Shown here piece by piece: positions 1 through 50,427 of a stretch of 64,000 bases of DNA. The stretch is taken from the NCBI GenBank assembly GCA_030390025.1, contig CM059432.1, forward strand, positions 85,934,001 through 85,998,000, read 5' to 3'. Positions within the stretch are counted from its first letter, which is position 1; each line of letters begins with the position of its first letter. The position numbers were made by a program, and so were the translations under genes. The DNA comes from Squalus acanthias (lineage: Eukaryota). Below the pieces are notes generated by a model that was not told where the DNA came from, did no database searches, and saw only the letters and a program-made list of their open reading frames with translations.

Positions 1-1680
1 CCTCGGGAGGAGGCTGATATGGATCATTCACTCGGCATTTCTGACTTAAGATGGTTGCACATGCTTCAGCTTTGTCTTTTGCACTCACGTGCTGTGCTCC
101 GCCATCATTGAGGATGGGGATATTTATGGAACCTTCTCCTCCCGTTAGTTGTTTAATGGTCCACCGCCATTCACGACTGGATGTGGCAGGACTGCAGAAC
201 TTTTACCTGATCCATTGATTGTGGGATCACTTAGCTCTGTCTACTGCATGCTGCTTCCGCTGTTTAGCATGCATGTAGTCTTGTGTTGTAGCTTCCCCAG
301 TTTCGCACCTCATTTTTAGGTACGCCTGGCATGCTCTTCTACACTCCTCCTTGAACCAGGGTTGGTCTCCTGGCTTGATGGTAATGGTAGAGTGAGGAAT
401 ATGCGGGGCCATGAGGTTACAGATTGTGCTGGAATAAAATTCTGCTGCTGCTGATAGCCCACAGCGCCTCATGGGTGCCCATTTTTGAGCTGCTAGATCT
501 GTTCTGAATCTATCCCATTTAGCACAGTGGTAGTGCCCCACAACACGCTGGAGGGTGTCGTTAATGTGAAGACAGGACTTCGTCTCCACAAGGACTGTGC
601 GGTGGTCACTGCTATGGACAGATGCATCTGCGACAGGTAGATTGGTAAGGATGAGGTCAAGTATGTTTTTCCCTCGTGTTGGTTTTCTCCCCACCTGCCG
701 CATGCCCAGTCTGGCAACTATGTCCTTCAGGACATAAGAATATAAGAAATAGGAGCAGGAGTCAGCCATTTGGCCCTTCGAACCTGCTCCGCCATTCAAA
801 AAGATCATGGCTGATCTTCTACCTCATCTCCGCTCGGTCAGTAGTGGTGTTACCGAGCCACTCTTGGTGATGAACATTGAAATCCCCCACCCAGAGTACA
901 TTCTGTGCTCTTGCTACCCTCAGTGCTTCTTCCAAGTGGTGTTCAACATGGAGTACTGATTCATCAGCTGAGGGAGGGCGGTGGGTGGTAATCAACAGGT
1001 GGTTTCCTTGCCCTTGCTTGACCTGAAGCCATGAAACTTCATGGGGTCCGGAGTCAATGTTGAGCACTCCCAGGGCCACAACCTCCCACTGTGCCCCACC
1101 TCTGGTGGGTCTGTCCTGCCGGTGGGACAGGACATACCGAGGGATGGTGATGGAGGAGTCTGGGACATCAGCTGAAAGGTATGATTCTGTGCGTATGACT
1201 ATGTCAGGCTGTTGCTTGACTAGTCTGTGTGGACAGCTCTCCCAATTTTGGCACAATTCCCAGATGTTGGTGAGGAGGACTTTACAGGGTCGGCTCGGCT
1301 GGCCTGGATGTGCCGTTTTCGTGTCCGAAGCCAGTTCCGAGGTCGATGCCGGGTGGTCCGTCAGGTTTTATTCTTCTTATTGCTTTTCATAGTGGTTTGG
1401 TACAACGCTGTGGGTTGCTAGGCCATTTCAAAGGGCAGTTAAGAGTCAACCACATTGCTGTGGGTCTGGAGTCACATATAGGCCAGACCAGGTAAGGACG
1501 GCAGATTTCCTTCCCTAGTTGGGTTTTTACGACAAACCGATAGTTTCATGGTCACCATTACTGATACTAGCTTTTGTTCCAGATTTATTTAATTAACTTT
1601 GGTGGGATTTGAACTCACGTTTTAGTCCAGGCCTCTGGATTTCTAGTCCAGTAACAGAACCACTATGCTACTGTTCCCAT
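1..1680 (-). mobile_element. Family A APE-RT LINE (CR1/L2 group), 5' half with tRNA-like head, degenerate
   Basis: APE endonuclease motifs (QPDIVIxTES, GDFNVH, LDLILTN, SDH) in ORFs 819-1256 and 227-808. Colinear with 12330-13820. A box at 1660-1670 and B box at 1605-1614 on the minus strand. Confidence 0.9.
733..830 (-). mobile_element. Short CR1 (HER1-like) 3' tail inserted in family A
   Basis: acataagaatataagaaataggagcagg...gatcatggctgatc is the reverse complement of the CR1 tail at 33360-33451. It is absent from the colinear family A copy near 12975. Confidence 0.85.
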
Positions 1681-2022
1681 ACAGAACCAGCCTGGCATGC
1701 TGAGTATTTCCAGAATTCTGTTTTTATTTCAGGTCACGCAGGGTTAACAGTCAGGAGATATTGCTATTGCAATTTACTATTTTTCATCCACTAAGATTGT
1801 TTGCTGGGATGATCCACCCCAACCCCTCGACTGGGATTATTTGTCGCTTCCCCTTCCACTACCCCCTCCCACTCCTTTCCTCCCTGTCTCTCTCCCTCCT
1901 CCACTTCCACGGTCACTCCTCCCTTCTCTGCACCCCGTCCCCTTCTCCGGATCCTGTCATCTGCTTCATCCCCTTCCTACTCTGCCTTAGTCAAATTGTC
2001 TCTTGATCGCTAACCCTGCGTT

Positions 2023-3315
2023 ACCTGAAATAAAAACAGAGAATTCTGGAAATACTCAGCTGGCCAGGCAGCATCTGTGGAGAGAAAAACAGAGTTAACG
2101 TTTCAGGTCAATGACCTTTTGTCAGAACTGGCAAAAGTTAGAGATGTAACACGTTTTAAGCAAGTGCAGAGGCAGGGAAAGGCAGGGAGGGGAGTGGGAG
2201 GAAAGATCAAAAGGGAAGGTCTGTCATCGCGTGGAAAGCATGAGTGATTAAATGACAAAACGGATGATGGTGCAAGGCAAAAGCGAGTGGTAATGGGACA
2301 AGTAAAGAAACAAAAGATGGGTCTCGAGGAGCTGTAATTGACAAAAGAACCTGCTGTCTGGAAAAAATGGGAGCAGTGGTTATGGTCTGAAATTGTTGAA
2401 CTCACTGTTGATTCTGGAAGATTGTAAAGTGCCTAATTGAAAGATGAGGTGCTGTTCCTTGAGCTTCAGTTGAGCTTCATTGGAACAGTGTAGGAGGCGG
2501 AGGACAGTGTGGTCAGAGTGGGAGTGGGACGCAGAATTAAAATGACAAACAACCGGAAGCTCAGAATCACACTTGCGGACTGAATGGAGGTGTTCAGCAA
2601 AGCAATCACCCAATCTGTGTTTGTTCTCCCCAATGTAAAGCTGCCCGCAACGTGAGCAGCGAATACAGTATATTAAATTGATAGAAGTACAAGTAAATCG
2701 CTGTTCCACCTGGAAGGAGTGTTTGGAATCCTGGACAGTGGGAAGGTAGGAGGTTAACGGGCAGGTGTTGCATCTCCTATGCTTGCACAGGAAGGTGCCA
2801 AGGGGAGTGGGTGTTCGGGGTGAGGGCAGAAGTGCGGGAAATGGAAAGGACGCAGTCGAGGGCCCTGTCAACCAGGGTGGAGAGCAACCCTCAGTTGAGG
2901 AAAAAGGAAGACATATTGGAAGCACTGGTATGGAAGGTGGCATCGTCAGAGCAGATGCGACTGAGACTGAGAGACTGGGAGAATGGAATAGAAGCAGGGG
3001 GTGGGAGGAAATGTAATCGAGGTAGCTGTGGGAGTCGGTGGGCTTATAGTAGATATTGGTGAACAGTCTATCCCCAGAAATGGAGATAGAGAAGTCGAGG
3101 AAGGAAAGGGAAGAGTCGGAGATGGACCATGTGAAGGCAAGGGAAGGGTGGAAATGGGAAGCAAAGTTGATGAAATTTTCATGTTTGGGGCGAGAGCAGG
3201 AAGTGGCACTGATACAGTCATCAATGTACTGGAAAAAGAGGTAAGGGAGGGGTCCTGAGTAGGACTGGAACAAATAATGTTCCATGTATCCTACGAAAAG
3301 GCAGGCATAGCTAGA
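2023..3315 (-). mobile_element. Penelope-like retroelement (RT fragment plus GIY-YIG endonuclease), 5' truncated, frameshifted
   Basis: ORF 2380-3285 has the YIDD RT motif, FLD..I, YYKPTDSHSYL and the GIY-YIG region LIYCIRCSRCGQLYIGE...RL..CFAEH...HFN. The terminal repeat unit lies at 2023-2131. Confidence 0.9.
2093..2129 (-). ncRNA. Minimal type I hammerhead ribozyme in the Penelope terminal repeat, core mutated
   Basis: Minus strand reads AGTT-CTGACAA-A-AGGTC att GACCT-GAAA-CGTT-AACT. CUGANGA is changed to CUGACAA. Confidence 0.7.
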
Positions 3316-4107
3316 CGTGAATGCTACATTTGTTCTTGATACCTATTGTGCAGTGTTTTGGGAGATTGACTAATATCCAATAAATTCCAGATAAATAAAT
3401 TTCCCTGGGATAACCAGAGGAAATCGCAACCAAATAATGGGTTGTGGCTTCTAGTGTTCTCTTTTTTTTTAATTCTTAGTACGTGGATAATTCCTTTTGA
3501 TTTTCTATTAGTTTTCAGATATTTTATGGAAGTATTTGTGGAGCATACTATATTGTAGGATATTCTCTACAATAATCAGGAGTGTCCCCTATTTACGTGC
3601 AGTTAGCAGACTAGGTCCTCTGGTGCAATCATCTAATTCCTGTTATAAATATATCCATTAGTGTATTACAAAACGTTATTTTCTCATTTCTGGAATTATT
3701 CTGTAACTCACAGTCAGGCCTATTGTAAACTCATTCTTGCACGCTAATTCAGGTTATCCGATATAAAGACACTAAATAATGAGGTAATTGAGCACAACTC
3801 CGCTCAATTATAGCTCCCTTTTAGTCATCAGCAATAAATAGATCAATTTTATGAAAACAAGTGAGCCACATCCCTTGAAATTCCAGCAGAATGGTAATTT
3901 GCACGTTATTCCTCGTCTTCAAATATTGTTTGTTTGATTTGCAAATTTCCAGATTTTTCAACAAAAGAATTAGTGCTTGAAGTACCCACCAAACTCCCTG
4001 CAAATAAACTTCCATATGCAGAAACTGTTAAGTGATACAACCTTAGTGTGTAGATGCCATGTCTACATTTGCAGTATTTTTGATTAAATGTCTCTAACCC
4101 GTAATTG

Positions 4108-10644: not shown

Positions 10645-13600
10645 ATTTTTTTTTTATTATTCATTCCTGGGATGTGGACATCGCTGGCAAGGCCAGCATT
10701 TATTGCCCATCCCTAATTGCCCTTGAGAAGGTAGTGGTAAGCTGCCTTTTTAAACCACTGCAGTCCCTATGGTGAAGGTGCTCCCACAGTACAGTTTGGA
10801 TTTTGACCCAGCGAAGGTGAAAAACGGGTGATATATTTCCAAGTCAGGATGGTGTGTGACTTTGAGGAGAACTTGGAGGTGATGGTGTTCCCATGTGCCT
10901 GCTGCCCTTGTCCTTCTAGGTGGTAGAGGTCGCGGGTTTGGGAGGTGCTGTTAAAGACGCTTTGGCGAGTTGCTGCAGTGCATCTTATAGATGGTACACA
11001 CTGCAGCCACGGTGCGCCAGTGATGGAGGGAGTGAATGTTTAAGGTATGGCCGGGTGCCAATCAAGCTGGCTATTTTGTCCTAGATGGTGTTGACCCTTG
11101 AGTGTTGTTGGAGCTGCACTCATCCAGGCAAGTGGAGAGTATTATTCCATCATACTCCTGACTTGTGCTGTGTAGATGATGGAAAGGCTTTGGGGAGTCA
11201 GGAGGTGAGTCACTCACCACAGAATACCCAGCCTCTGACGTGCTCTTGTAGCCACAGTATTTATGTGGCTGGTCCAGTTAAGCTTCTGGTCAATGGTGAC
11301 CCCCAGGATGATGTTGGTGGGTGAATTCGGCGATGGTAATGCCGTTTAATCTCATGGGATGGTGGTTAGAATCTCTGTTGTTGGAGATAGTCATTGCCTG
11401 GCACTTGTGTGGCACGAATGTTACTTGCCACTTAGCAGCCCAAGCCTGAATGTTGTCCAGGTCTTGCTGCATGCGGGGATGGACTGTTTCATTATCTGAG
11501 GAGTTTTGAATGGAACTGAACACTGCAATCATTAATGAACATCCCCACTTCTGACCTTATGATGGAGGGAAAGTCATTGATGAAGCAGCTGAAGATGGTT
11601 GGGCCGAGGACACTGACCTGAGGAACTTCTGCAGCAATGTCCTGGGGCTGAAATGATTGGCCTCCAACAACCAAAACCATCTTTATTTGTGCTAGGTATG
11701 ACTCCAGCCAGTGGAGAGTTTTACCCTTGATTCCCTTTGACTTCAATTTTACTAGGGCACCTTGATGCCACACTCTGTCAAATGCTGCCTTGATGTCAAG
11801 GGCAATCAATCTCCCCTCGCCTCTGGAATTCAGCTCTTCTGTCCATGTTTGGACCAAGGCTGTAATGAAGTCTGGAGCCGAATGGTCCTGGTAGAACCCA
11901 TACTGAGCATCGGTGAACAGTTTATTGGTGAGTAAGTGTTGCTTGACAGCACTGTCGATTACCCCTTCCATCACTTTGCTGATGATCAAGAGTAGACTGA
12001 TGGGCCGGTAATTAGCAGGATTGGATTTGTCCTGCTTTTTGTGGACAGGACATACCTGGGCAATTTTCCACATTCTTGGGTAGATGCCAGTGTTGTAGCT
12101 GTACTGGAACAACTTGGCTAAAGGTGTGGTCAGTTCTGGAACACAAGTCTTTGTTGTATCCAGTGCGCTGAGCCATTTCTTGATATCACGTGGAGTGAAT
12201 CGAATAGGCTGAAGACTGGCTTCTGTGATGGTGGGGACCTCAGGAGGAGGCCAAAATGGATCATCCACTCGGCACTTCTGGCTGAAGATGGTTGCTAATA
12301 CTTCAGCCTTGTCTTTTGCACTCACGTGCTGGGCTCCGTCCTCATTGTGGATGGCGATATTCATGGAGCCTCCTCCTCCCGTTAGTTGTTTAATTGTCCA
12401 CCACCATTCACGACTGGATGTGGCAGGACTGCCGAGCTTTGATCTGATCTGTTGGTTGTGGGATCGCTTAGCTCTGTCTTTAGCATGCTGTTTCCGCTAT
12501 TTAGCATTTAGGTAGTCCTGTGTTGTAGCTTCCCCAGGTTGGTTCTTCATTTTTAGGTACGCCTGGTGCTGCTCCTGGCATGCTCTTCTACACTCCTCAT
12601 TGAACCAGGGTTGGTCCCCTGACTTGATGGTAATGGTAGAGTGAGGGATATGCGGGGCCATGAGGTTACAGATTGTGGTGGAATAAAATTCTGCTGCTGC
12701 TGATGGCCCATAGTGCCTCATGGATAACCAGTTTTGAGCTGCTAGATCTGTTCTGAATCTATCCCATTTAGCATGGTGGTAGTGCCACACAACACGATGG
12801 TGGTGTCCTTAGTGTGAAGACGGGACTTCGTCTCCACAAGGACTGTGCGGTGGTCACTCTCCTGGACAGATGCATCTGCGACCGGTAGATTGGTGAGGAC
12901 GAGGCCAAGTAGGTTTTCCCCTCGTGTTGGTTCTCCCACTACCTGCCGCAGGCCCAGTCTGGCAACTATGTGCTTTAGGTCTTGGCCAGCTTGGTCAGTA
13001 GTTGTGCTACCGAGGCATTCTTGGACATTGAAGTCCCCCACCCAGAGAACGATTGCGCCCTTGCTACCCAAAGTGCTTCTTCCAAGTGGTGTTCAACACG
13101 GAGGAGTACTGATTCATCAGCTGAAGGAGGGCAGTAGGTGGTAATCAGCAGGAGGTTCCCTTGCTCATGTTTGACCTGATGCCACGAGGCTTCAATGTTG
13201 TGGCATCCCAGGGCCACCCCCTCCTGACTGTATACCACCAAGCTGCCTCCTCTGGTATGTCCTGTCCCACTGGCAGGACAGACCCAGGGATGGTGATGGA
13301 GGAGTCTGGGACATTGGCTGAAAGTCATACTCACAGAATCATACCTATGGCAGGCTGTTGCTGACTAGTCTGCGGGACAGCTCTCCCAATTTTTGCACAA
13401 GTCCCCAGATGTTAGTGAGGAGGACTTTGCAGGGTCGACTGAGCTGGGTGTGCCATTGTCGTGTTCGATGCCGAGGTTGATGCCGGGTGGTCCGTCCGGT
13501 TTTATTCTTAGTATACTTCTTTGTAGCGGTTTGGTACAACTGAGTGGATTGTTCAGAGGGCAGTTAAGTGTCAACCACATTGCTGAGGGTCTGCAGTCAC

Positions 13601-13820
13601 ACATAGGCCAGACCGGGTAAGGACAGCAGATTTCCTTCCCTAAAGGGCATTAGTGAACCAGATGGGTTTTTATGACAATCCAGTAGTTTCAAGGTCACCA
13701 TTACTGATACTAGCTTTTTTTTATCCTGAATTTAAATTCCCCAGCTATCATGGTGGGCCTCATTCGTCCAGGCCTCTGGATTACTAGTCCAGTAACATAC
13801 CCACTATGTTACCGTACCTA
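10645..13820 (-). mobile_element. Family A APE-RT LINE, near full length (~3.2 kb), degenerate
   Basis: In order on the minus strand: tRNA-like head (A box 13801-13811), APE (KVLLTNIWGL, GDFN, SDH), RT (ORF 11492-12364: NYRPISLL, QYGF, LDIKAAFDRVWH, VPQxSVLGP), C-terminal region, then the tail agggcaattagggatgggcaataaatgctgg and poly(A). Confidence 0.92.
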
Positions 13821-18740: not shown

Positions 18741-19670
18741 AACCCAGTTAAGCAACGCCTCGATTTTAAAATTCTCATCCTTGTTTTCAAATCCCTCCAT
18801 GGCCTCGCCCTCCCTATCTCTGTAATCTCCTCCAGCCCTATAACCCTCCAAGATAACTGTGCTCCTCCAATTCTGGCCTCTTGAGCATCTCCAATTTTAA
18901 TCGCTCCACCATTGGCGGCCGTGCCTTCAGCTGCCAAGGCCCTAGGCTCTAGAATTTCTCCCTAAACCTCTCTGCCTCTCTACTTTTCTTTCCTCCTTTA
19001 AGACGCTCCTTAAAACTTATCTCTCTGACCAAGCTTTTGGTCATCTGCCCTAATATCTCCTTAAGTGGCTTGGTTTCAAGTTTAGTTTGATAACGCTCCT
19101 GTGAAGCGCCTTGGGACATTTTACTATGTTAAAAGGCGCTATATAAATGCAAGTTGTTGTGTTCTCTCCATCACAAAGACGGCCTGCATCCAACTTCGTA
19201 GCATTGCCTGCCTCTACCTCAGCCTCAGCCCATTTTCTGATGAAACTCTCATCCATTTCTTTGTCACTTCCAGACTTGACTATTCCAATACTTTCCTGGC
19301 TGACTTCCCATCTTCCACCGTCTGGAAATTGCAGCTCATCCAAAACTCTGCTGCCCGTATCCTGTCCTACCCACCTGTCACCCTTGTCCTTGCTGACCTA
19401 CATTGACTCCCGGTTCCTTAACGGCTTAAATTTAAAATTTTCATCTGCGTTTAAATTTCCTCATAGCCTTGCCCCTCCCTATGTCTGTAACCTCCTCCAT
19501 TCCAATAACCCCTGCCTTCCCCCGGAACTCTCAGTTCCTCCGGCACTGGCCTCTTGTGCACCCACTTCCCTTCACCCTACCATTGGCAGTTTATTTTCAA
19601 CTGCCAAGGCCTCACGCTGCGGAATTCCCTTCCTAAGCACCTCTGTCTCTCCACCTTCCTCTCCTTCTTT
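18741..19670 (+). mobile_element. Two adjacent L2-like LINE 3' fragments
   Basis: PVKQRLDFKILILVFKSLHGLA and LIHFFVTSRLDYSN...LQLIQNSAAR translations; tail gtgaagcgccttggga...tatataaatgcaagttgttg at about 19100-19160. Confidence 0.85.
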
Positions 19671-19733
19671 ATAGGGAATGGGAGCTGCATTTACAGGAGT
19701 TGCCAGTGGCACTCAATCCAAGGAAAATATCTG

Positions 19734-20499: not shown

Positions 20500-23400
20500 T
20501 CAATTTTATTTTATTCGTTCATGTGATCTGGGCGTTGCTGGCAAGGGCAGCATTTATTGCTCATCCCTAATTGACCTTGATATGTGAAGAGAAAAAGATT
20601 AGTGAAATCAAGTCCCTTGCAGTCAGAAGCGGGGGAAGTTATAATGGGGAACAAAGAAATGGCAGACCAATTAAATGCATATTTTGGTTCTGTCTTCACA
20701 AAGAGGACACAAATAACCTCCCAGAGATGTTGGAGAACATACGGTCTGATGAAAGGGAGGAACTGAAAGAAATCAGTATTTGCAGGGAAATGGTGTTAGG
20801 GAAATTGATGGGATTGAAGACTGATAAATCCCCAGGGCCTGATAATCTACATCCTAGGGTACTTAAGGAAGTGGCCCTAGAAATAGTAGATGCATTGCTC
20901 ATCATCTTCCAACATTCGATGGAATCTGGAACTGTACCCATGGATTGGAGGGTAGCTAATGTTACCCCACTATTCAAAAAGGGTGGTAGAGAGAAAGCGG
21001 GGAATTACAGACCGGTAAGCCTCACATCGGTAGTGGAAAAAATGCTAGAGTCCATTATAAAGGATGTAATAGCTGAGCACTTGAAAAACAGTGACAGGAT
21101 CGGACAAAGTCAACATGGATTTACAAAAGGTAAATCGTGCTTGACTAATCTACTGGAATTTTTTGAGGATGTAACTGGGAAAATAGATGAGGGAGAACCA
21201 GTAGATGTGGTGTATTTGGACTTTCAAAAGGCTTTCGATAAGGTCCCGCAAAAGAGATTAGCGTGTAAAGTTAAGGCACATGGGATTGGGGGCAAGGTAT
21301 TGACTTGGATAGAGAACTGGTTGGCGGACAGAAAGCAGAGAGTAGGAATAAATGGGTCTTTTTCCGAGTGGCAAGCAGTGACTAGCGGGGTACCGCAGGG
21401 ATCGGTCCTTGGACCCCAGCTATTCACAATATACATTCATGATCTAGATAAGGGAACTAAATGTAATATCTCCAAGTTTGCAGATGACACAAAGCTGGGT
21501 GGGAGTGTGTGCTGCGAGGAGGATACCGAGAAACTCCAGGATGATTTGGACAGGTTGGGTGAGTGGGCAGAAGCGTGGCAGATGCAATATAACGTGGATA
21601 AATGCGAGGTTATCCACTTTGGTGTCAAAAACAGAAAAGCAGACTATTATCTGAATGGCAATAGATTGGGAGAAGGGGAAGTGCAACGAGACCTGGGTGT
21701 CCTTGTGCACCAGTCGCTGAAAGTAAGCATGCAGGTGCAGCAGGCGGTGAAGAAGGCAAATGGTATGTTGGCCTTCATAGCGAAAGGGTTTGAGTATAGG
21801 AACAGGGATGTCCTGCTGCAGTTGTACAGGGCCTTGGTTAGACCACACCTTGAGTACTGTGTGCAGTTTTGGTCACCTTATCTGAGGAAGGATGTTCTTG
21901 CCATGGAAGGAGTTCAGCGAAGATTCACAAGACTGATACCTGGGATGGCAGGAATGACATATGAGGAGAGATTGGGTCGATTGGGCTTATACTCGCTGGA
22001 GTATAGAAGAATGAGAGGGGATCTCATCGAAACATATAAAATTCTGACAGGTCTGGACAAACTAGATGCAGGAAGAATGTTCCCGATGGTCGGAGAGTCC
22101 AGAACCAGGGGTCATAATCTAAGGATAATGGGTAAGCCATTTAGGACAGAAATGAGGAAGAATTTCTTCACCCAGAGAGTGGTGAACTTGTGGAATTCTC
22201 TACCACAGAAGGTAGTTGAGGCGAAGTCATTAAATATATTCAAGAATGAGTTAGATATATTTCTTAAAGCTAAAGGTATCAAGGGATATGGGGAGAAGGT
22301 AGGTACAGGGTACTGAGTTTGGATGATCAGCCATGATCTCATCGAATGGCCTACTCCTGCTCCTATCTTCTATGTTTCTATGTTTGAGAAGGTGGTGGTA
22401 AGCCGCCTTCTTGAATCGCTGCAGTCCGTGTGGTGAAGGTACTCCCACAGTGCTGTTAGGGGGGGCGGAGTTCCAGGATTTTGACCCAGCGACGATGAAG
22501 GATTGGCGATATACTTCCAAGTCAGGATGGCGTGTGACTTGGAGGGGATCTTGGAGGTGGTGGTGTTTCCATGCGCCTGCTGCCCTTGTCTTCTAGGTGG
22601 AAGAGGTCATGGGTTTGGGAGGTGCTGCCGAAGAAGCCTTGGCGAGTTGCTGCAGTGCATCTTGTAGATGGTACACACTGCAGCCACGGTGCGCCGGTGA
22701 TGGAGGCAGTGAATGTTTAAGGTGGTGGATGGGGTTCCAATCAAGTGGGCTGCTTTGTCCTGGATGATGTCGAGCTTCAGTGGAGAGTTTTCACCCCGAT
22801 TCCCATTGACTTCAGTTTTACTAGGGCTCCTTGATGCCACACTCGGTCAAATGCTGCCTTGAGTGATGTTGGCGCTGCACTCATTCAGGCAAGTGGAGAG
22901 TATTCCATCACACTCTTTACTTTTGGCTTGTAGATGGTGGAAAGGTTTTGGGGAGTCAGGAGGTGAGACAGTCGCTGCAGAATACCTAGCCTCTGACCTG
23001 CTCTTGTAGCCACGGGATTTATGTGGCGGTCCAGTTAAGTTTCTGGTCAATGGTGACCCCCAGGATGTTGATAGTGGGGGATTCGGCGATGGTAATGCCG
23101 TTGAATGTCAAGGGGCGGTGGTTAGACTCTCGCTTGTTGGAGATAGTCATTGCCTGGCACTTGTGTGGCGCGAATGTTACCTGCCACTTATCAGCCAAGC
23201 TTGAATGTTGTTCAGGTCTTGCTGCATGCGGGCATGGACTGCTTCATTATCTGAGGAGTTGTGAATGGCACTGAACACTCTGCAGTCATCGGTGAACATC
23301 CCCATTTCTGACCTTATGTTGGAGGGAAGGTCATTGATGAAGCAGCTGAGGATGGATGGACCTAGGACACTGCCCTGAGGAACTCCTACAGCAATGTCCT

Positions 23401-23810
23401 GGGGCTGAGATGATTGTCCTCCAACCACCACAACCATCTTCCTTTGTACTAGGTATGGCTCCAGCCAGTGGAGAGTTTTCACCCCGATTCCCATTGACTT
23501 CAGTTTTACTAGGGCTCCTTGATGCCACACTCGGTCAAATGCTGCCTTGATGTCAAGGGCAGTCACTCTCACCTCACTTCCTGGAATTCAGCTCCTTTGT
23601 CCATGTTTGGACCAAGGCTGTAATGAGGCCTGGAGCCGAGTGGTCCTGGCGGAACCCAAACTGGGCATCAGTGAGCAGGTTATTGGTGAGTTAAGTGCCG
23701 CTTGATAGCACTGTCTGACACCTTCCATCACTTTGCTGACAATTGAGAGTAGACTGATGGGACTGTAATTGGCCGGATTGGATTTGTCCTGCTTTTTGTA
23801 GACAGGACAT
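20500..23810 (-). mobile_element. Family A LINE 3' half, interrupted by a CR1
   Basis: Tail at 20505-20580, resuming at 22384. RT ORF 23177-23572 (LDIKAAFDRVWH, GVPQGSVLGP, FTDD). Itself flanked by pieces of an older plus-strand relative (20392-20500 and 23812-24050). Confidence 0.9.
20581..22383 (+). mobile_element. CR1 (HER1-like) LINE, 5' truncated, with uninterrupted RT reading frame
   Basis: ORF 20571-22316 has KSPGPD, NYRPVSLTS, QHGF, YLDFQKAFDKV, GVPQGSVLGP, FADD and the CR1 C-terminus. Tail ttctatgt; TTGA direct repeat at 20577-20580 / 22384-22387. Confidence 0.95.
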
Positions 23811-24850: not shown

Positions 24851-25498
24851 CTGGTACAAAAGCAAAATACTGCGGATGCCGGAAATCTGAAATAAAACAG
24901 AAAATGCTGGAAATACTTAGCAGGTCAGGCAGTACCTATTGAGAGAGAAACAGAGTTAACGGTTGGAATTTTCTGGGGTCCATGAGGGCACAATTGGAGG
25001 CAGGTCGGGTGGGAAATTTGAAAAATCTTGCTGCGGGTCAGGAACCCGCCGTCATCCCGCCCCCACGTGCCTTTTCCTCGGTCGTGTTTGCCGGCGTGGC
25101 AGCGAACCAAATGGCCAAAGCGGGCGAGCTAATTTAAATCATTGAGGTACTTGTCAGACCCTCAAGTGCCTTTTTCACCCTACCTTTCAAATTTCCCTGG
25201 ATGAGCATGGGAATTATGCAGCTCGGGAACCACTTCTGTGAAACTGAGGCAGAAGTTGAGTGGCCATTGATCCACCTTATTAGTGCACAGCATGAAAAGT
25301 ACAATTAAAAAGTACAACCTCTCAGCTGATCACTTTCAAAGGCAGATGCTTTTGCTGACTGCATTGTCAGCACAGATTTAGCTTTCTGGAGATTGCAAGT
25401 GCTGTCAGCATCCACTGTCACCTCAGTGGTAGAACCTATCACACCATTGACAGATTGCTTCTGTCAGCTCTACTTGACCTGCCATCTATTCCATCAGC

Positions 25499-26658
25499 AT
25501 GGGTGCTATTTATACTGTCTCACCTTGGTCCTCGGAATCAGACCACGATGAGCCTCAACACCAGCAGCACCAATAACAACACCACCAACCTTCTCCTCAA
25601 CCACCTGATACTGCACAGGACAGAGAGCATCAGCGCAGGGCAGAGGGTGAGGATGAGCTTCCTCAACATGACGCAGCAGCTGTGCCAAAGGAGTCTCAGG
25701 CTATCGCGCCAGCTCGTCGCAGACATTTGCACATTGCTGGAGGAAGACCTGCAGCCCAGAGGAGCAGGTGGACACGCCTTACCAGTTGCTGTCAAAGTCA
25801 CCAGCGCCCTCAACTTTTTCGCCTCCGGCTCCTTCCAGGGATCTGCAGCAGACATTTGTGGCATCTCGCAGTCGGCCGCCCACAGATGCATCACCCAGGA
25901 AACTGATGGCCTCTTTGACAAGTCAGCCAATTATATCAACTTTGCCACTGATGAAGCCAGTGTTACTGAGTGGAAGCTTGACTTTGCCACTCTGCCTGGT
26001 GTCATCGACTGCACACATGTGGCCACCAGGGCACCCGATCATCACCCAGGATTGTTTGTGAACCACAAGGGCTTCCGCTCCCTCAGTGTGCAGCTCGTCT
26101 GCAACCACAGGAAGATCACCATGCATGTGTGTGCAAAATTCCCTGGCAGCTGCCATGACTCTCTCATCCTGCGCCAGTCCACCCTCCCTCAGCTCTTTGC
26201 TCCTCCAGACAGACTTTCCGGCTGGCTGCTTGGAGACAAGGGCTATCCATTGAAGACGTGGCTCATGACCTCCTTGAGGAGGCCAAGTACTGAGGCCCAG
26301 GAGAGATATGATGAAAGCCACATTTCCACCAGATGCGTCATAGAACAGACAATTGGCATGCTGAAAATGCACTTCAGATGCCTTGACAGATCTGGAGGAG
26401 CCCAGGTCACCAGCCAGGGTCTCCAGAATCATCGTCGTCTGCTGCGCCCTGCACGACATAGCACAGCAGCGAGGATTACCGCTGCATGAGGAGCAAGGCA
26501 CTGAGCGCACAACCTCTTTGGAGGAGGAGCATCAGCTGGAAGATGAGGAGGAGGATGAGGAGGAGTAGGAGGAACCTGTGGTCCAGATCCCGCCAGCACC
26601 CGAGCACATTGCTGCCCGGGAGGCCAGGGATGGGCTCATCATGGCCAGATTTACTTAA
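25499..26658 (+). pseudogene. Harbinger DDE transposase (HARBI1-like), frameshifted
   Basis: ORF 25455-26489: [11 protein letters not shown]...[55 protein letters not shown]. The C-terminal IIVVCCALH is in another frame. Confidence 0.92.
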
Positions 26659-26947
26659 CTTTACGCATTACACCCTTATGGTTGCCACATGCTGCACCAG
26701 GTTGGCACCACCCCACAGCAACACCCTACAATAACCAAGCTATTCCTTTCACACTGACCACCATTGCTGGGGGTAACGTTATGTCTCACTATTCACTCCA
26801 ACTCACTAAGCCACTTCCAAAGGTGCACACAAATTTGTCCATGACTGCAAAGTGGTGAAAATAAAGATTTTTATCTGTGACATCACAGTAACGGAAACTT
26901 TACAGAAACATATTTAATAAAACACATTAGTGGCTACCCTCGTGAAT

Positions 26948-28792
26948 CTACTTGTGTTTCATCTTTCTCTTGCATGTGCTTCTACGAGGTGCAACTCCAT
27001 GTGGCTTCAGCAGAGGTAGAGACAGCCTGCTTACTTCCCTGCTGCGACTGCACAGATCCTTTTGGCGGACGTCCTCTGGGTTTTGGAGCCTCTGATGGCC
27101 CCGCCAAAGTCTGCTCCTCCTTTGATTGTGCAGGAGCAGACTCAGCCATCGTGATCCCAGGAGGCATCTAGGGCTCTGACTGGGGGGTGGGGGGACATAG
27201 GGGGAGAAGTGTGAGCGCTTTAAGAAGAGCCCCCTCTCACCATCATCTCTCTCACGGGCCAACTACACTTCCCTGCTAGCAAGGAGCTGGAGAACACCTT
27301 GCTGCACAGCAGTGGGGCCATGAGGACCCACTTCTACGTGGACATCCCTCCTACAAAGGACATCTGAACCTTTGCCATCTATTCTCCATAGAGACCATGT
27401 GCTCCTGTGAGTGGAGCATTAGCCGCTCCATGCAGGTGACCATCCTTTCCATGGAAGAGCCTACAGTCGCCATCGCCTGCGACATGGTGCTCATGTTGGA
27501 GATGGACTCCTTCATTCTCTGCACATTTGCAAATATCGCGGTTGCAAAACCTGTCAAAGCTTCCTGTACTTCCTGCTCCACCTCCAAGAACGCCCTCTTT
27601 CTGGATGGCCCCCGAGGCTCAGCGTCTGCATGCAGCTGATCAGAGCTGGGAGTATCCTTCGCCCTCTGGCAAGGTGTCTCCACTGCTGTCCCTGTCTCCA
27701 CCATCTGCTCTCGCTCATTTGTGAGTTGTGAGACACCAGGTGACAACACTACTCTATCTCGCGGGGGACCCACCGAGGTGTGCGTATCTGCGCTGGTGCT
27801 GGGTGCGCTTATGTCTGGTGACGGTGCGCCCTCAGAGGCTGCTCTGAGGAGTCATCTTCCTTTCCTCCTGGACAGTCGGGGTGGGGTGGTGCTCTTGATG
27901 GACCTGTGGGAGAGTAAAGAGATTATTTATATATGTCATATGAAGAATGGGTACAGATACCATTATGCACATGATGAACATTCACTGGCTGCTGACATCA
28001 GTCCCCATATGAGTGACTGCTGTATGATATTTAGCTGTATAATATGTAATTCTGTCACCAGGTTGCTGAGATGTCCCCCTCTCTCCGTCTCCCACCTCCA
28101 GCTGCTCGGCGACTCCAGAAACTTCCAAGGCAGCCTCCTCTGCTGATGTTAGGGTGGCCAATGATGGACGGCCACCTCTGGTTCTCTCCCTCTCCCTCTT
28201 ATTGTGGGCTGTCTTTTCCTGCAAGGAAGGAAGGAAGAGAAAGTTGAGTGAGAGTGATGGAATGAGTGTAAGGAATGAATGGGTTACATCTGTAGAGGGT
28301 GCCTATGATGGAGTGGGGTGGCAATGCCAAGTGGCCTCCTTGTTTGTTAGTTGGTATGATTGCATTAGGATGAGTGTGAGGGGTGGCTAGTCAGATGGGG
28401 ATGTGATAATGTAGATAGAGAGAGAGGGATGGGTGGATGTGCAAGGTATGTAGGTGTGATTAAGGATGTGCAGGAGCAGGGTTGGGAAGGCAGAGTGATG
28501 GGGATGTGATGAGAGGTGCAGCAGACTGAAGTTGAGTGTGGCTTTGAAGTCACCTTTCCTGATCTAATGATATCATTGAAATGTTTGCGGCACTGCACCC
28601 AGGGCCTCCTGACCACATCCCTGCTGTTCACCTCCTCTGCTATTAGGAGCCAGGCTCTTTTTGTCTCCTGGGGAGGTCTGCTCCGCCCATTAGAAGGGAA
28701 GAGGACCTCCCTGCGTGCTCTCACTCCCTCCACAAGCATATGGATGGAGTCATCGGAGAACCTGGGTGCACCCTCTGTCTCAGTGCAGTCAT
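26948..28792 (-). pseudogene. Harbinger Myb/SANT-like DNA-binding protein gene, three exons (~28792-28554, 28218-28059, 27903-26948), frameshifted
   Basis: APRFSDDS...EVLFP...AW..IAEEVN...RPWVQCRKHFND, then EKTAHNKRERERTRGG...LTSAEE. GT-AG introns with compatible phases (0, then 1). Basic C-terminus PRRSTCKRKMKHK. Confidence 0.85.
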
Positions 28793-29106
28793 GTTTGGCA
28801 CTCTTTGTAGCAGTCCAATTGTGCAGTGTGTTGCCTGCACTATCCTAGATGAACCTTCAGATGCAATGTGGCCATGGCCCCTTTAAATATCCCGGCTGAA
28901 AATGCATCATCGTTGACATCATCAAACCCGCACCATTTAATTGGGCCGGGTAATGCGTAGGGCAGCCTTAATAGGCCCCATTAACGGAAAGTCGATCTCG
29001 GGAGCGGCATGGGATGGAGAACGGGGTCGCGACCCGCTACGGCAACCACCCGCACCCGACCCGCCCAGGTACAGAAAATTACGGCCAATGTTTCAAGTCG
29101 ATGACC

Positions 29107-30672: not shown

Positions 30673-31782
30673 TTTGTAGATTGATTCATATATATCCATG
30701 GGGTACAGTAGCCTAGGTTATGTTACTGGACTAGTAATCTAGAGGCCTGGAGTAATGATCTGGTGACATGAGTCAAATCCCACCATGGCAGATGGGGAAT
30801 TTAAATTCAGTTAATTAAATAAATCTGGAATAAAAAAGCAAGTGTCAGTAATGGTGACCATGAAACTACCGGATTGTTGTAAAAACCCCTCTGGTTCACT
30901 AATGTCCTTTAGGGAAGGAAATCTGCCATCCTTACCCGGTATGGCCTGCATGTGACTCACAGCAATGTGATTGACTCTTAACAGCCGTCAGAAACGGCCT
31001 AGCAAGCCACTCAGTTGTACTAAACGACTACAAAGAAGTACGATAAGAATAAAACCAGACGGACCACCCAGCATTGACCTAGGCACTTGACACGACAAAA
31101 GCACACCCAGCCCAGGTGACCCCGCAAAGTCCTCCTTTCCAACATCTGGAACTTGTGCCAAAATTGGGAAGGGCTCTCCCACAGACTAATCAAGCAACAG
31201 CCTGACATAGTCATACTCTCAGAATCATACCTTTCAGCCAGACTCCTCCTCCATTAACATCCCTGGGTATGTCCTGTCCCACCGGCAGAGCTGGCACAGT
31301 CAGAAGGGGGTGGCCCTGGGAGTCCTCAGCATTGATTCTAGACCCCATGTAGTCTCATGGTATCAGGTCAAACATGGGTAAGTAAACCTTATTCCCTCAG
31401 CTGATGAATCCGTACTCCTCCATGTTGAACTTGGACGAAGCACTGTGGGTAGCAAGGGCACAGAACGTATTCAATGTCCATCACCAAGAGCGGCTCGGTG
31501 ACACTACTCATGCCCAAGCTGACTGAGTCCTGCCAGACTGGTAAACAGCATGCTATAGACAGGGCTAAGCGATCCCACAACCAACGGATCAGATCAAAGC
31601 TCTGCAGTCCTGCCACATCCAGTCGTGAATGGTGGTGGAAAATTAAACAACTAACGGGAGGAGGAGGCTCCATGAACATCCCCAGCCTCAATGATGGTGG
31701 AGCCCAGCACGTGAGTGCAAAAGACAAGACATAAGCGTTCGCAACCATCTTCAGCCAGAAGTGCTGAGTGGATGAACCTTCT

Positions 31783-33451
31783 TGGGAACCAAGGGTCTAG
31801 CGAGAATGAGCAACTGAAAGATATTCGTATTAGTTAAAAAGTAGTACTGGAGAAATTAATGTGACTGAAAGTCGATAAATCTCCTGGACCTGATGGCCTA
31901 CATCCTAGGGTTTTGAAAGAGTTCGCTATAGAGATAGTGGATGCATTGGTTGTCATTTTCCAAAATTCCATAGATTCTAGAATGGTTCCCACAGATTGGA
32001 AGATAGCAAATGTAACCCCACTATTTAAGAAAGGAGGGAGAGAGAAAACGGGGAACTACAGACCAGTTAGCCTGACATCAGTAGTATGGAAAATGCTAGA
32101 ATCTATTATTAAGGACGTGGTAACAGGGCACTTCGAAAATAATAATAGGATTGGGCAGAGTCAACACGGATTTATGAAAGGGAAATCGTGTTTGACGAAT
32201 CTGTTGGAGTTTTTTGAGGTTCTTAGTAGCAGAATAGATGAGGGGGAACCAGATGGATGTGGTGTATTTGAATTTTCAGAAGGCATTCGATAAGGTGCCA
32301 CACAAGAGGTTATTAAACAAAATTAGGGCTCATGGGATTGGGGGTAATATACTAGCATGGATTGAGGATTGGTTAACGGACAGAAAACAGAGAGTAGGAA
32401 TAAACAGCTCATTTTTGGGTTGGCAGGCTGTAACTAGTGGGGTACCGCAAGGATCAGTGCTTGGGCCTCAGCTATACACAATCTACATCAATGATTTGGA
32501 TGAGGGGACCAAATGTAATATATCCAAGTTTGCTGATGATACAAAGCTGGGTGGGAATGTAAGTTGTGAGGAGGATGCAAGGAGGCTTCAAGGGAATATA
32601 GACAGGCTAAGTGAGTGGGCAATAACATTGCAAATGGAATATAATGTGGAGAAATGTGAAGTTATCCACTTTGGTAGGAAAAATAGAAAAGCAGAGTATT
32701 TTTTAAATGGTGAGAGATTGGGAAATGTTGGTGTTCAGAGGGACCTGGGTGTCCTTGTACACGAATTACAGAAAGTTAACATGCAGGTACAGCAAGCAAT
32801 TAGGAAAGCAAATGGTATGTTGGCCTTTATTACAAGAGGATTTGAGTATAAGAGTAAAGACATCTTACTGCAATTATATAGGGCCCTGGTGAGACCACAC
32901 CTGGAGTATTGTGTACAGTTTTGGTCTCCTTACCAAAGGAAGGATATACTTGCCATAGAGGGAGTGCAACGAAGGTTCACCAGAATGATTCCTGGGATGG
33001 GGGGATTGTCCTATGAGGAGAGATTGAATAGACTAGGCCTATATTCTCTAGAGTTTAGAAGAATGAGAGGTGATCTCATTGAAACATACAAAATTCTTAC
33101 AGGGCTTGACAGGGTAGATGCAGGGAGGATGTTTCCCCTGGCTGGAGAGTCTAGAACCAGGGGTCACCGCCTCAGAATAAGGGGTCGGCCATTTAGGACT
33201 GAGATGAGGAAAAGTTTCTTCACTCTGAGGGTGGCGAATCTTTGGAATTCTCTACACCAGAGGGCTGTGGAGGCTCAGTCGTTGAGTATATTCAAGACAG
33301 AGATCGGTAGATTTTTGAATATTAAGGGAATCAATGGATATGGGGATAGTGCAGGAAAATGAAGCTGAGGTAGAAGATCAGCCATGATCTTATTGAATGG
33401 CGGAGCAGGCTCGAAGGGCCAAATGGCCTACTCTTGCTCCAATTTCTTATG
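31783..33451 (+). mobile_element. CR1 LINE, 5' truncated
   Basis: ORFs 31913-32293 and 32238-33362 (one frameshift) carry full RT motifs. TTCT repeat at both junctions. Confidence 0.95.
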
Positions 33452-34702
33452 TTCTCGGCCTCCTCCTGAGGTCGCCACTATTACAGAAGTCAGTCTTCAG
33501 CTAATTCGATTGACCCCACGTGTTATCAAGAAACGGCTGAGTGCAATGGATACAGCCAGGCTATGGGCCCCGACAACATCCCGGCTGTCATGCTGAAGTG
33601 TGCTCCAGAACTAGCCAAGCTTTTCAAGTACAGCTACAACACTGGTATCTACCTGACGATGTGGAAAATTGCCCAGGTATGCCTTGTCCACAAAATCAAG
33701 ACAAATCCAATCTAGAGGTGAGGTGACAGTCAATGGGAAAACTCTCCACTGGCTTGAGTCATATCTACCAAAATAAGGAAGATGTTTGTGGTTGTTGGAG
33801 GTCAATCATCTCAGCCCCAGGACATCATTGCAGGAGTTCCTCAGGGCAGTGTCCTCGGCCGAACCATCTTCAGCTGCTTCATCCATGACCTTCCCTCCAT
33901 CATAAGGTCAGAAGTGGGGATGTTCGCTGATGATTGCACAGTGTTCAGTTCCATTCGCAACTCCTAAGATAATGAAGAATTCTGTGCCTGCATGCAGCAA
34001 GACCTGGCCGACATTCAGGCTTGGGCTGCTAAGTGGCAAGTAACATTCGCACCACACAAGTGCCAGGCAATGACTATCTCCAACAAGAGAGAGTCTAACC
34101 ACCACCCCTTGACATTCAATGGCATTACCATCACCGAATCCCCCACCATCAACATCCTCTGGGTCACCATTGACGAGAAACTTAACTGGACCAGCCACAT
34201 AAATACTGTGGCAACAAGAGTGGGTCGGAGGCTGGGTATTCTGCGGCGAGTGTCTCACGTGCTGACTCCCCAAAGCCTTTCCACCATTTACAAGGCACAA
34301 GTCAGGAGTGTGATGGAATACTCTCCACTTGCCTGGATGAGTGCAGCTCCAACAACACTCAAGAAGCTTGACACCATCCAGGACAAAGCAGCCAAATTGA
34401 TTGGCATTCCATCCACCATCTTAAACACTCCTCCACCACCGGCGCACCCTGGCTGCAGTGTGTACCATCTACAAGATGCACTGCAGCAACTCGCCAAAGC
34501 TTCTTCGACAGCACCTCCAAGACCCGCGACCTCTACCGTCTAGAAGGACAAGACCAGCAGGCGCATGGGAACACCATCACATCCAAGTTCCCCTCCAATT
34601 CACACACCATCCTGACTTGGAAATATATCGCCATTCCTTCATTGTCGTTGGGTCAAAATCCTGGAACACCCTCCTTAACAGCACTGTGGGAGTACCTTCA
34701 CC

Positions 34703-35995
34703 AGTCACTTGGACAAGTGTGGAAAGCCAGCACGGATTTGTTAAAGGCAAATCATGTTTAACTAACTTGATTGAGTTTTTTGATGAGGTAACAGAGAGGG
34801 TTGATGAGGGCAGTGCAGTTGATGTGGTGTACATGGACTTCCAGAAGGCGTTTGATAAAGTGCCACACAATAGGCTTGCCAGCAAAGTTGAAGCCCATGG
34901 AATAAAAGGGACAGTGGCAGCATGGATATGAAATTGGCTAAGTGACAGAAAACAGAGAGTAGTGGTGAACGGCTGTTTATCGAACTGGAGGAAGGTACAC
35001 AGTTGTGCTCCCAGGGGTCGGTACTCTGACTACTACTTTTCTTGATATATATTAATGACAGACTTGAGTGTACAGGGCGCAATTTCAAAATTTGCAGATG
35101 AAACAAAACTTGGAAGTATAGTGAACAGTGAGGAGGATAGTGATAGACATCAAGAGGACATAGACAGGCTGGTGGAATGGGCAGACATGTGGCAGATGAA
35201 ATTTAATGCAGAAAAGTGCGAAGTGATGAATTTTGGTAGGAAGAACGAGGATAGGCAATATAAACTAAAGGGTACAACACTAAAGTGGGTGCATGAACAG
35301 AGAGACCTGGGGGTATATGCGCACAAATTGTTGAAGGTGGCAGGGCAGGTTGAGAAAGCAGTTAATAAAGCATACGGAATCCTGGACTTCATAAATAGAG
35401 GCATAGAGTACAAAAGCAAGGAAGTTATGATGAACCTGTATACAACACTGGTTCGGCCTCAATTGGAGTATTGTGTCCAATTCTGTTCACCGCACTTTCG
35501 GAAGGATGTGAAGGTCTGAGAGAGGGTGCAGAAAAGATATACAAGAATGGTTCCAGGGATGAGGTACTTCAGTTAGATAGACTGGAGAAGCTGGGGTTGT
35601 TCTTCTGAGAGCAGAGATGCTCTCAGAAGAGATTTGGTGGAGATGTTCAAAATCTTGAGGGGTCCAGACAGAGTAGATAGAGAGAAACTGTTCCCAATGG
35701 CAGAAGGGTCGAGAACCTGAGGACACAGATTTAAGGTGATTGGCAGAAGAACCAAAGGCGACATCAGGAAAAACTTTTTATGCAGCGAGTGGTTAGGATC
35801 TGGAATGCACTGACTGAAAGAGTGGTGGAGGCAGATTCAATCGTGGCTTTCAAAAGGGAATTGGATAAGTACCTGAAGGAAAATTTTTTGCAGGGCTACA
35901 GGGAAAGTGCGGGGGAGTGGGACTAGCTGAAGTGCTATTGCAGAGAGCCGGGACGGGCCGAATGGCCTCCTTCTGTGCTGTAACCATTCTATGAT
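34703..35995 (+). mobile_element. CR1 LINE (attctatg-tail subfamily), 5' truncated
   Basis: SQHGFVKGKSCLTNL, YMDFQKAFDKV, KFADE; tail ccattctatgatt. Confidence 0.9.
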
Positions 35996-36109
35996 TCACG
36001 GACTGCATCAGTTCAAGAAGACGGCTCAAGGGCAATTAGGGATGGGCAATAAATGCTGGTTTGCCAGCGACGCCTACATCCCATGAACGAATCTAAAAAA
36101 AAATACAAA

Positions 36110-36540
36110 GAAAGACTTGCATTTATATAGTGCCTTTCACAACCACCAGACGTCCCAAAGTGCTTTACAGCCAATGAAGTACTTTTTGAAGTGTAGTCAC
36201 TGTTGTAATCTAGGAAACCCGGCAGCCAATTTGCACACAGCAAGCTCCCACAAACAACGACGTGATAATGACCGGATAAACAGGGCCTTTTTTAGTGATA
36301 ACTCCCGTACTCTTCTTTGAAATAGTGCCTTGGGATCTTTTACATCCACCTTCGAGAGCAGACAGGGTCTCGGTTTAACGTCGCATCCGAAAGATGGGTC
36401 CTCCGACAATGCAGCACTCCCTCAGCACTGCACTGGAGCGTCAGCCTAGATTTCTGTGCTCATGTCTCTGGAGTGGGACTATGAGCGCATAACCTTCTGA
36501 CTCAGACGTGAGAGAGCTACCAACTGAGCCACTGGCTAAA
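36110..36540 (-). mobile_element. tRNA-derived SINE with Deu-like central domain and L2-type tail
   Basis: Minus strand: A box TGGCTCAGTTGG, central ctttcggatgcgacgttaaaccgag...gtaaaagatcccaaggcactattt, tail gtaaagcactttggga...tatataaatgcaag shared with L2. Confidence 0.8.
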
Positions 36541-47380: not shown

Positions 47381-48274
47381 TATAATGGGTTATGAGAAAA
47401 TCAGTTGCTATTTCACACCATATTGAAATACGCTTACTAAGGAATAACGGAATGAAAAGCTACAAAATAAAGCAAAAGGCTACTAACTGACAAAAGTGTA
47501 TACCTTGAAATTGCCATAATCCACACTGGCAAATCAGGGTTACAAAGTGTAATAATTGCATACTTCTGTAGTGATGTGCTGTGATTTATTTCATAAATGG
47601 AAGTATAATATAAAAAGGAATGACTTCTTTCAGCACTTTAAATATTCTGTGACTTGCAGACTGAAGCACTTGGACTTGCATTTGACCTGTATATGTTGAT
47701 ATTTTTAATAAATATTTCACTGTCCAGATATCTGAATAAAGTATGCAGTGTATTTTATTAAAGAACAATTTTTGATCTTTTAACCCTTATGTGTCAGAAT
47801 GTCAAGGGTTCCTTTGAAAATACAGTGCACAGCAGTTAACAAACAATGGAAGTATTCATTTAACTTGAGCATTTGTTCAGACGTGGATTTGTACCCTGTA
47901 CATTCTAATATAAAAGTATAGCTGGTTCCTCAGAACAGATTTACCCATGGTTCCTGACTCCTGTATACTATTTTTGGGCAGAACTATGTTGCCTTTATAT
48001 TGTTGAAGACCCATGCTCGTGCTGCCGCCTTCTGATGCATGAATCTCCTGCACCTGGCTGCAACCCAAAAGTAAACTTGTCAGGACTCACTAAAGCCAGG
48101 AACTGGGAAGTCCCATCAAAAAACTGTTGTTGGATTAGCAGAAAACTATTTTAAACAAAATTGCAATCAAAGCCTCATTTGCATGCTGTCTATGTACTGA
48201 TCACTCTGTATGTGAAGGCAAGCTTCCTGATATTGGTCCTAAATTTGCTTTTTACCTGTTTGAACCTGTGTTCA

Positions 48275-50085: not shown

Positions 50086-50427
50086 TATTTCTTTTGAGAT
50101 TTTTAATAGCATGTTAGGACTTTGGTCTCATTTATAGTTGAAGTTATGAATTTTGCTTAGGTTACCTCTCTGTGTGGGAGGGATATTGTTCATGTCTTAC
50201 CTTGTGAATATTTGAAGGAATACCTTGTAGACAGGAATATTAAGTTCTGAATCCTAATATCATAAGTACTGGAGTGGGGCTTGAACCCATGACCTTCTGA
50301 GTGCTCCCATTGAGCCAAGCTGGCACTAAAACATCTTCCTTTCTATGTAATGTGGAAAAAACCTAACCCAACGTCACAATGCATAGAGGCTTTGTAATTT
50401 TGGTACTGTTTCGTGTCTGTTTCATAG

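Follow-up and report, generated by a model that had tools for sequence, protein, structure and literature searches.

A dead copy of a tRNA-headed elasmobranch Zenon LINE, from a coding family that may be transcribed by RNA polymerase III and started without an AUG

The stretch of Squalus acanthias DNA analyzed here, in the following called the window, comprises 64,000 nt (GenBank assembly GCA_030390025.1, contig CM059432.1, positions 85,934,001 to 85,998,000, forward strand). It is repeat-dense and of vertebrate type, and self-comparison revealed two families of long interspersed elements (LINEs). The subject of this report is one of them, family A, and above all its full-length copy at 10645-13818, in which a tRNA-like head of the type known from short interspersed elements (SINEs) precedes a leader, just one open reading frame (ORF) for endonuclease (APE) and reverse transcriptase (RT), and a tail. 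An earlier note on this DNA had described the element as an autonomous SINE-LINE chimera without an ORF1, possibly with RNA polymerase III (Pol III) as its transcribing enzyme.

Three copies of family A in the window keep a 5′ end, and their common start was noted correctly: 1679 and 13818 on the minus strand and 30701 on the plus strand all correspond to family positions 1-3. The copy at 10645-13818 is dead, since frameshifts and stops break its APE-RT ORF; its many frameshifts are accompanied by four private runs of four or five T (T4/T5), and its B box has been removed by a 19-nt deletion at 13756. The third copy had been thought to end at 34.7 kb, which is wrong, because two CR1 insertions split it and its tail lies beyond them; the single T4 run ascribed to it is indeed there. 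The coordinates are collected in Table 1.

Table 1. Family A copies in the window and their parts
Feature	Position	Strand	Remarks
Full-length dead Zenon LINE copy (family A)	10645-13818	-	87% BLAST identity to the family majority, 23 indels
tRNA-like head of this copy	13745-13818	-	A box 13811-13801, one change
Conserved leader, common to the genome's SINE	13528-13744	-	Putative Deu-type body, named after the description in PMC5499810 (excerpt)
Predicted leader helix H1	13615-13640	-	One compensatory change in the whale-shark consensus (by eye)
Remnant of the predicted anticodon-mimic hairpin	13540-13556	-	Lacks 9 nt here
GCT codon able to pair with the hairpin loop; predicted frame start	13525-13527	-	
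Single APE-RT ORF	10713-13527	-	971 codons from GCT in the family majority; here disrupted (frameshifts, stops)
First APE motif	near 13413	-	
RT catalytic motif	near 11539	-	
3′ tail, common to the SINE	10646-10712	-	poly(A) at 10658-10646
Second copy, 5′ part	1-1679	-	Best head; extends past the window edge
Parts of the second copy		-	A box 1670-1660, B box 1614-1605, hairpin 1431-1406, GCT position 1393-1391
Third copy	30701-36103	+	Head 30702-30791, hairpin 30989-31014, ORF pieces to 34703
CR1 insertions splitting the third copy	31784-33453 and 34723-35997		Tail of the third copy at 35997-36103 (+)
5′-truncated copy, family A	22384-23810	-	Family nt 1896-3242

The majority sequence of 19 copies (L036 and L050 left out) has 3320 nt, with a stop-free frame of 973 codons at nt 331-3249. 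Head, APE, RT, tail, and poly(A) are collinear in family A, and its length of about 3.32 kb agrees with the earlier estimate of about 3.2 kb without room for an ORF1. Indeed, only a 330-nt leader lies upstream of the ORF, and nothing common to the copies was found beyond the head. Both enzymatic domains were identified in one ORF on natural copies (Pfam PF14529/PF03372 and PF00078), and the copies end in a poly(A) tail. The best named protein matches are from a shark.

By eye, SquAca_Zenon-1 (Stuart et al. 2026, PMC13343379, available to us, like the other papers cited here, in excerpts) differs from the family A majority in only a few places of its first 400 nt. To judge by this near-identity and by the length, on which membership in Zenon rests, family A is SquAca_Zenon-1 and was already catalogued. 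According to that work, sharks, rays, coelacanth, and hagfish all have Zenon, which in every case lacks ORF1 and has poly(A); the lack of ORF1 is confirmed but is a general Zenon trait and not special to family A. SquAca_Zenon-1, -2, and -3 and the Zenon-1 consensuses of CarCar, RhiTyp, ScyCan, and HypSab resemble family A in their single APE-RT ORF, absent ORF1, poly(A), and length of about 3.3 kb. The tRNA head, in contrast, goes unremarked: in the available text, "tRNA" and "polymerase III" have 0 matches, "tRNA" has 0 in the supplement, and we saw no discussion of a promoter or start codon in these excerpts. CR1-Zenon is also named once in the available part of a whale-shark preprint (10.1101/443036), there without a tRNA head. 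Searches of the openly searchable literature (that is, outside subscription journals, Repbase, and Dfam notes) brought up neither a tRNA-headed or Pol III-made autonomous LINE nor a role of the Deu body as internal ribosome entry site (IRES). What is new is thus a SINE-type promoter head on a catalogued LINE family, undescribed in the literature searched.

Some peculiarities of the copies may be mentioned here. Two annotated shark proteins (P0001 and P0026) hold pieces of the family A LINE at 81-86% identity; one of them carries an aldo-keto reductase name, and both are probably gene models that took in a repeat. In L168, L002, and L061, part of the element is inverted beside a 5′ or 3′ part, resembling the products of L1 twin priming. 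All family A and SINE copies taken together have an unusual number of private deletions in the range of 5-20 nt, most often of 6 and of 9-11 nt, which may reflect repair habits of the S. acanthias genome.

The best head is that of the second copy, whose A box (TAGCATAGTGG) and B box (GTTCAAATCC) were found exactly where they had been claimed. As a tRNA, it is only weakly recognized: the match of the Rfam tRNA model to 1669-1594 (25.4 bits, E 0.6) falls short of the gathering score of 29, and ARAGORN found no tRNA gene in the 64-kb window. The anticodon position reads AGT in the family majority. No subfamily variant touches the B box, and, by eye, each of the seven elasmobranch consensuses has the A and B boxes (the B box is damaged or clipped in two), whereas the spacer between the boxes diverges yet keeps a hairpin. 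Compared with the definition of SINE2 elements, family A has the tRNA-derived head with boxes (below the Rfam gathering score), but with 3.3 kb and a selected ORF it is not short, non-coding, or non-autonomous.

A genome search with the head plus the start of the ORF returned 9126 first-look candidates. Twenty loci picked from 40 matches were refetched; all of them run from head to APE to RT, 14 as far as the tail. When only the head served as the query, the ORF followed in 28 of 30 loci; of the other two, one has an internal deletion and one an inversion. Copies were also selected without bias toward the head, by their RT protein, as the 20 longest open frames of 144 scored matches, and the outcome agrees: seven reach the head, two end in the leader, and 11 are truncated in the ORF, so that another 5′ end was seen in 0 of 20, including 0 of the 9 that reach the leader. 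BLAST alignments start at family nt 1-2 in 48 of 71 head-bearing genomic copies. The 5′ flanks of these 71 copies have no common sequence adjoining the head, and none extends upstream into an ORF1 or a 5′ untranslated region of the RNA polymerase II (Pol II) type. Family A is one mobile unit, with its head fixed to the ORF by a single junction, as the earlier note had supposed. Target site duplications could not be detected in 21 full-length copies (best matches of 0-6 nt, versus 0-7 nt in mismatched pairs).

The junction also bears on the view that the head-bearing form is a non-autonomous SINE-LINE chimera of a headless Zenon, or that the copies are serial template-switch chimeras or insertions into SINEs. 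The abundance of a SINE with the same head, leader, and tail would suit such an origin, as would the fact that 5′-truncated copies cannot reveal their original 5′ end. However, one junction is fixed in all copies and in seven published consensuses, none of the RT-selected copies reaching the leader has a different 5′ end, no SINE remainder follows the poly(A), the heads of LINE and SINE differ at many fixed sites, and purifying selection and frame-keeping indels are found within the head-bearing copies themselves (see below). We regard this view as largely refuted and its truth as very improbable. Site-specific insertion into SINEs and independent chimeras were rejected because of the one fixed junction and the missing SINE remainder after the poly(A).

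Selection on the ORF was assessed in head-bearing copies after removal of 18 duplicate loci. Outside CpG sites, the variants present in at least six copies comprised 38 nonsynonymous (N) and 52 synonymous (S) changes and 0 stops, whereas private variants comprised 1202 N, 446 S, and 69 stops; the N/S ratio is thus 0.73 for common versus 2.70 for private variants (Fisher p 3e-9). Furthermore, every common deletion in the ORF preserves the frame (multiples of 3), whereas 215 of 314 private deletions disrupt it. Since the changes common to head-bearing copies are mostly silent, the unit was autonomous, and this purifying selection in head-bearing lineages bears out the claim of an autonomous, protein-coding element. 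A point against it is that none of the 144 scored matches is intact. With 91-97% identity of the genomic copies to the majority and no open frame above 834 amino acids among these matches, the family seems to be inactive now. The architecture and former autonomy of the head-bearing LINE are, in our judgment, practically certain.

By the textbook division, LINEs are Pol II-transcribed, protein-coding, and autonomous, and SINEs are Pol III-transcribed, non-coding, and parasitic. Is the head then a working promoter? Transcription units of Pol III follow the rule that no T4 or TCTTT terminator lies inside them (PMC10572872), and the family A majority agrees with it: such motifs number 0 on the sense strand and 17 on the antisense strand, and conserved TTTT terminators, which would have spoken against Pol III, are absent. 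In base shuffles, the mean is 5.2 terminators (p 0.004-0.014). Across 84 copies (184 kb), 27 T4 runs were counted, each in at most two copies. TTT runs are also reduced (5, versus 11.4 in codon shuffles; p 0.003), while runs of A, C, and G are as expected. A young CR1 of the same genome has 5-6 terminators in 740-870 codons.

Several observations weaken this argument. Against codon shuffles, the deficit of T4 (0 versus 1.8 expected) is not significant (p 0.12; with TCTTT, p 0.066), because codon use itself avoids T (Phe TTT:TTC, 3:15), and the ORF is generally C-rich at third positions. Of the earlier claims on T runs, the contrast with CR1 is real (0 versus 5-6 runs), yet CR1 also has only about half of its codon-shuffle expectation (p 0.01-0.05). 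Changes that create T4 are never common to at least four copies, but the same is true for C4 and G4. More distant sequences were of little help: a metagenome scan with protein alignment kept 80 of 480 loci, all distant (mostly 24-40% identity), in which BLAST found no head, ARAGORN at a lowered threshold gave only noise, and the ORFs were mostly T4-rich; at this distance, they are no fair control. Viral contigs yielded no relative.

These observations lend themselves to another explanation, namely, that Pol II makes the unit from a promoter in the leader or in flanking host DNA, that the head is a passenger or an RNA structure (for stability, 5′ processing, or as a chromatin boundary), and that the poverty in T is a matter of base composition. 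LINEs are taken to be Pol II units (PMC5786205), the absence of T4 does not exceed chance in codon shuffles, and two short metagenome relatives (L078 and L131) are also devoid of T4 over 370-400 codons. This explanation, however, leaves it unclear why all long copies start at one base directly before the A box, as SINEs do, and why the boxes persist in sharks and a ray with a diverging spacer between them; furthermore, a capped RNA would face eight upstream ATGs and offer no usable in-frame AUG. We consider transcription by Pol II unlikely. From sequence evidence, transcription of the element by Pol III from its internal promoter is the probable case.

RNA made by Pol III would need cap-free translation, and the leader is unusual in this respect. 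It contains eight ATGs, but the open frame itself has its first ATG only at residue 285, past the endonuclease; this and the predicted tRNA-mimic fold had escaped the earlier note. Near nt 360, 25 of 70 head-bearing copies read ATA where the others have an out-of-frame ATG; in the copies without this ATG, the ORF is still under selection (41 N/49 S), and of six common changes behind it, five are silent in the main frame and one in the +1 frame. A start at this +1-frame ATG followed by a frameshift was rejected, because the changes are silent in the main frame and no slippery heptamer is visible by eye. In contrast, the open frame appears to be kept from a GCT codon at nt 337 onward: the distance from GCT to an AAT block is 15, 18, 21, or 24 nt, and thus divisible by 3, in all 37 copies that the search pattern matched (out of about 70 head-bearing copies). 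Relatives have a basic N-terminal extension of similar length, up to about 40 residues, and distant invertebrate-type relatives likewise have a single ORF with Met-called basic N-terminal extensions.

Just upstream, at nt 299-324, we predict a hairpin whose 7-nt loop, CUAGCAA, has the build of an anticodon loop; the UAGC in this loop is complementary to GCUA 12 nt downstream. Over the 3.3 kb, there is a single instance of this motif of hairpin plus complement, located at codon 3 of the open frame, and 5 of 5000 leader shuffles contained any such motif. Variants in the hairpin stem keep the pairing: 29 of 69 LINE copies have G-U in place of G-C, and at one stem position, 23 of 28 SINE copies have G-C and the ray consensus has A-U. 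In addition, one of the leader helices shows a compensatory change. In the predicted fold, the leader recalls pseudoknot I (PKI) of type 6 IRESs from the intergenic region (IGR) of dicistroviruses (PMC12221177): an anticodon-like loop would face a complementary codon some 12 nt farther downstream, where a frame without AUG is predicted to begin. The leader is of similar size, and its next codon, ACA/ACG, is reminiscent of ACA, which is frequent in subtype 6f. The known type 6 examples are viral. We tentatively propose a pseudoknot-type, AUG-less start at the GCU codon, a model that we rate at slightly below an even chance.

A number of points count against this start. The motif criteria were set after the sequence had been seen, which makes the shuffle p optimistic; multiples of 3 before AAT can also arise by slippage of AAT repeats; the covarying stem position is an A-C mismatch in 68 of 69 LINE copies; and no covariation is seen in the loop-codon pairs. 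In folding, the leader does not surpass its shuffles (z 0.32), Rfam searches of the window and of a young leader gave no IRES match and no ribozyme match, and pseudoknots II and III (PKII, PKIII) and stem-loops IV and V (SLIV, SLV) of the viral IRESs were not found (pseudoknots themselves were not modelled). The lack of covariation in the pseudoknot speaks for another idea, namely, that Pol III makes the RNA, that the hairpin is only a conserved element of the SINE body, and that translation starts by re-initiation after the minimal in-frame AUG-GCC-UAG (nt 304), by read-through of its stop, or at a near-cognate codon. An in-frame ATG at nt 304 is indeed followed by TAG-CAA, and AUG-independent re-initiation is known for L1 ORF2. 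But most copies have a second in-frame stop, TAA, at nt 328, the distance from the nt 304 ATG to GCT is one base shorter in the whale-shark consensus (by eye), and the SINE has GTG in place of this ATG. An uncapped RNA with seven further upstream ATGs is, moreover, a poor scanning substrate, which disfavors scanning here. A start in one of these ways is, in our estimation, quite improbable.

The head has a duplicated anticodon-like arm (family nt 34-65, window 1650-1615) that forms two CTGGA/TCCAG hairpins. Its loop, CTAGTAA, is one base apart from the leader hairpin loop, CTAGCAA, and the tRNA mimic of the leader may derive from the duplicated arm.

The leader is not confined to the LINE. A query with an old short copy yielded 30 loci, 24 of which consist of leader plus tail, joined from nt 324-351 to nt 3201-3252. 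This SINE shares the whole leader (73-85% identity) and the tail with the LINE; in its longest copies, the hairpin, GCT, and the codons after it are preserved, and the joint to the tail lies at an AAGAAG-like repeat that is present at both ends. The junction fits an internal deletion of the LINE, and a reverse template switch would use the same repeat. Among sequencing runs, no RNA sample was listed as containing the element; assembled contigs cover it in four other organisms and have the same SINE-type joints of leader to tail. To go by the description in PMC5499810, the SINE of this genome would be SacSINE1, with relatives in chimaera and coelacanth; the position and build of the leader fit the Deu body as described there (a comparison with the description, not with a reference sequence). 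Five young, internally deleted copies (L160, L177, L161, L004, and L019) have head and leader joined to a later part of the ORF or to the tail, each with its own junction, and are raw material for new SINEs.

Of the proposed SINE-LINE chimera, the SINE-type head on a coding LINE stands, but the SINE of this genome may be an internally deleted descendant of the LINE as readily as its donor. In the first 400 nt of the available hagfish (two) and coelacanth (one, with low-confidence letters) Zenon consensuses of PMC13343379, no head was found, and Kojima 2018 (PMC5786205), in the part seen, lists only RTE and Vingi as 5′ parts in SINE bodies, none from the CR1 group; both favor the view that the elasmobranch ancestor captured a SINE. 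For Bov-tA, CoeSINE4, and SINE2_Gav (PMC5786205, PMC7245038), which also combine a tRNA head with LINE 5′ and 3′ parts, it has been described how a LINE can become a SINE by internal deletion. There, however, the head was added to a deleted, non-coding RTE or Vingi, and the excerpts name no head-bearing autonomous partner. The Deu-SINEs SacSINE1 and LmeSINE1 (PMC5499810, PMC3747384) resemble family A in their tRNA head, conserved body, tail of a CR1-group partner, and occurrence in sharks; by their descriptions, they are non-coding and non-autonomous, whereas in family A the same 5′ part precedes a selected ORF of 971 codons. Deu-SINEs of bivalves also have CR1-Zenon partners (PMC11481361).

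In sum, the tRNA-type promoter, the absence of T-run stops, the lack of a normal start codon, and the predicted tRNA-mimic fold make a Pol III origin likely and cap-free translation possible. In our model, TFIIIC and TFIIIB would assemble on the A and B boxes of the head, and Pol III would transcribe the 3.3 kb up to the first T run past the poly(A). The uncapped RNA would attach to ribosomes via the leader, where pairing of the AGC loop with the GCU codon would set the frame, as pseudoknot I does in dicistrovirus IRESs. The APE-RT protein would then copy, in cis, the RNA that encodes it and, in trans, the related SINE. The explanation as a whole, a dead copy of an autonomous elasmobranch Zenon LINE with a tRNA head, made by Pol III and started by a pseudoknot, stands in our estimation evenly between right and wrong. 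A further-reaching proposal, which we think rather unlikely to hold in full, is that elasmobranch Zenon bypasses both Pol II and the cap by a 3.3-kb Pol III RNA, that its dicistrovirus-like, factor-free IRES is the Deu-type SINE body, and that SINEs arise from the LINE by internal deletion. If the body were an IRES that is kept in LINE-derived SINEs, its conservation over hundreds of millions of years would be explained.

Other repeats in the window are listed for completeness. A short repeat at 36103-36394 adjoins the tail of the third copy, is 76% alike to 50424-50749, and is probably a different SINE. Two further multi-copy families are found at 18743-19671, 48272-48880, and 57256-57921 and at 25308-28993 and 58479-59812, and a 320-codon open frame at 2383-3342 (minus strand) resembles another RT fragment. 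The CR1 copy at 20732-22383 (plus strand) is 5′-truncated and canonical, with an unbroken 527-codon RT end; its family is much younger than family A, since 39 other genomic matches are 98-99% identical (L211-L234).

Whatever the polymerase, an abundant LINE family whose sole 5′ module is a SINE head breaks the division between LINEs and SINEs in structure. If the Pol III reading is true, the element would be a natural 3.3-kb Pol III messenger in need of cap-free translation, and the finding would be categorically new if both steps, Pol III transcription and the cap-free start, hold. Such a compact Pol III cassette that yields a protein would be of interest to gene-expression engineers. The predicted tRNA mimic at the first codon makes a precise and cheap test possible. 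It bears on the idea of IGR-type IRESs in non-LTR elements, which the available part of PMC3894237 raises as a possibility only, and it makes the function of highly conserved SINE bodies, whose conservation is called unexplained in the excerpt of PMC5499810, accessible to experiment.

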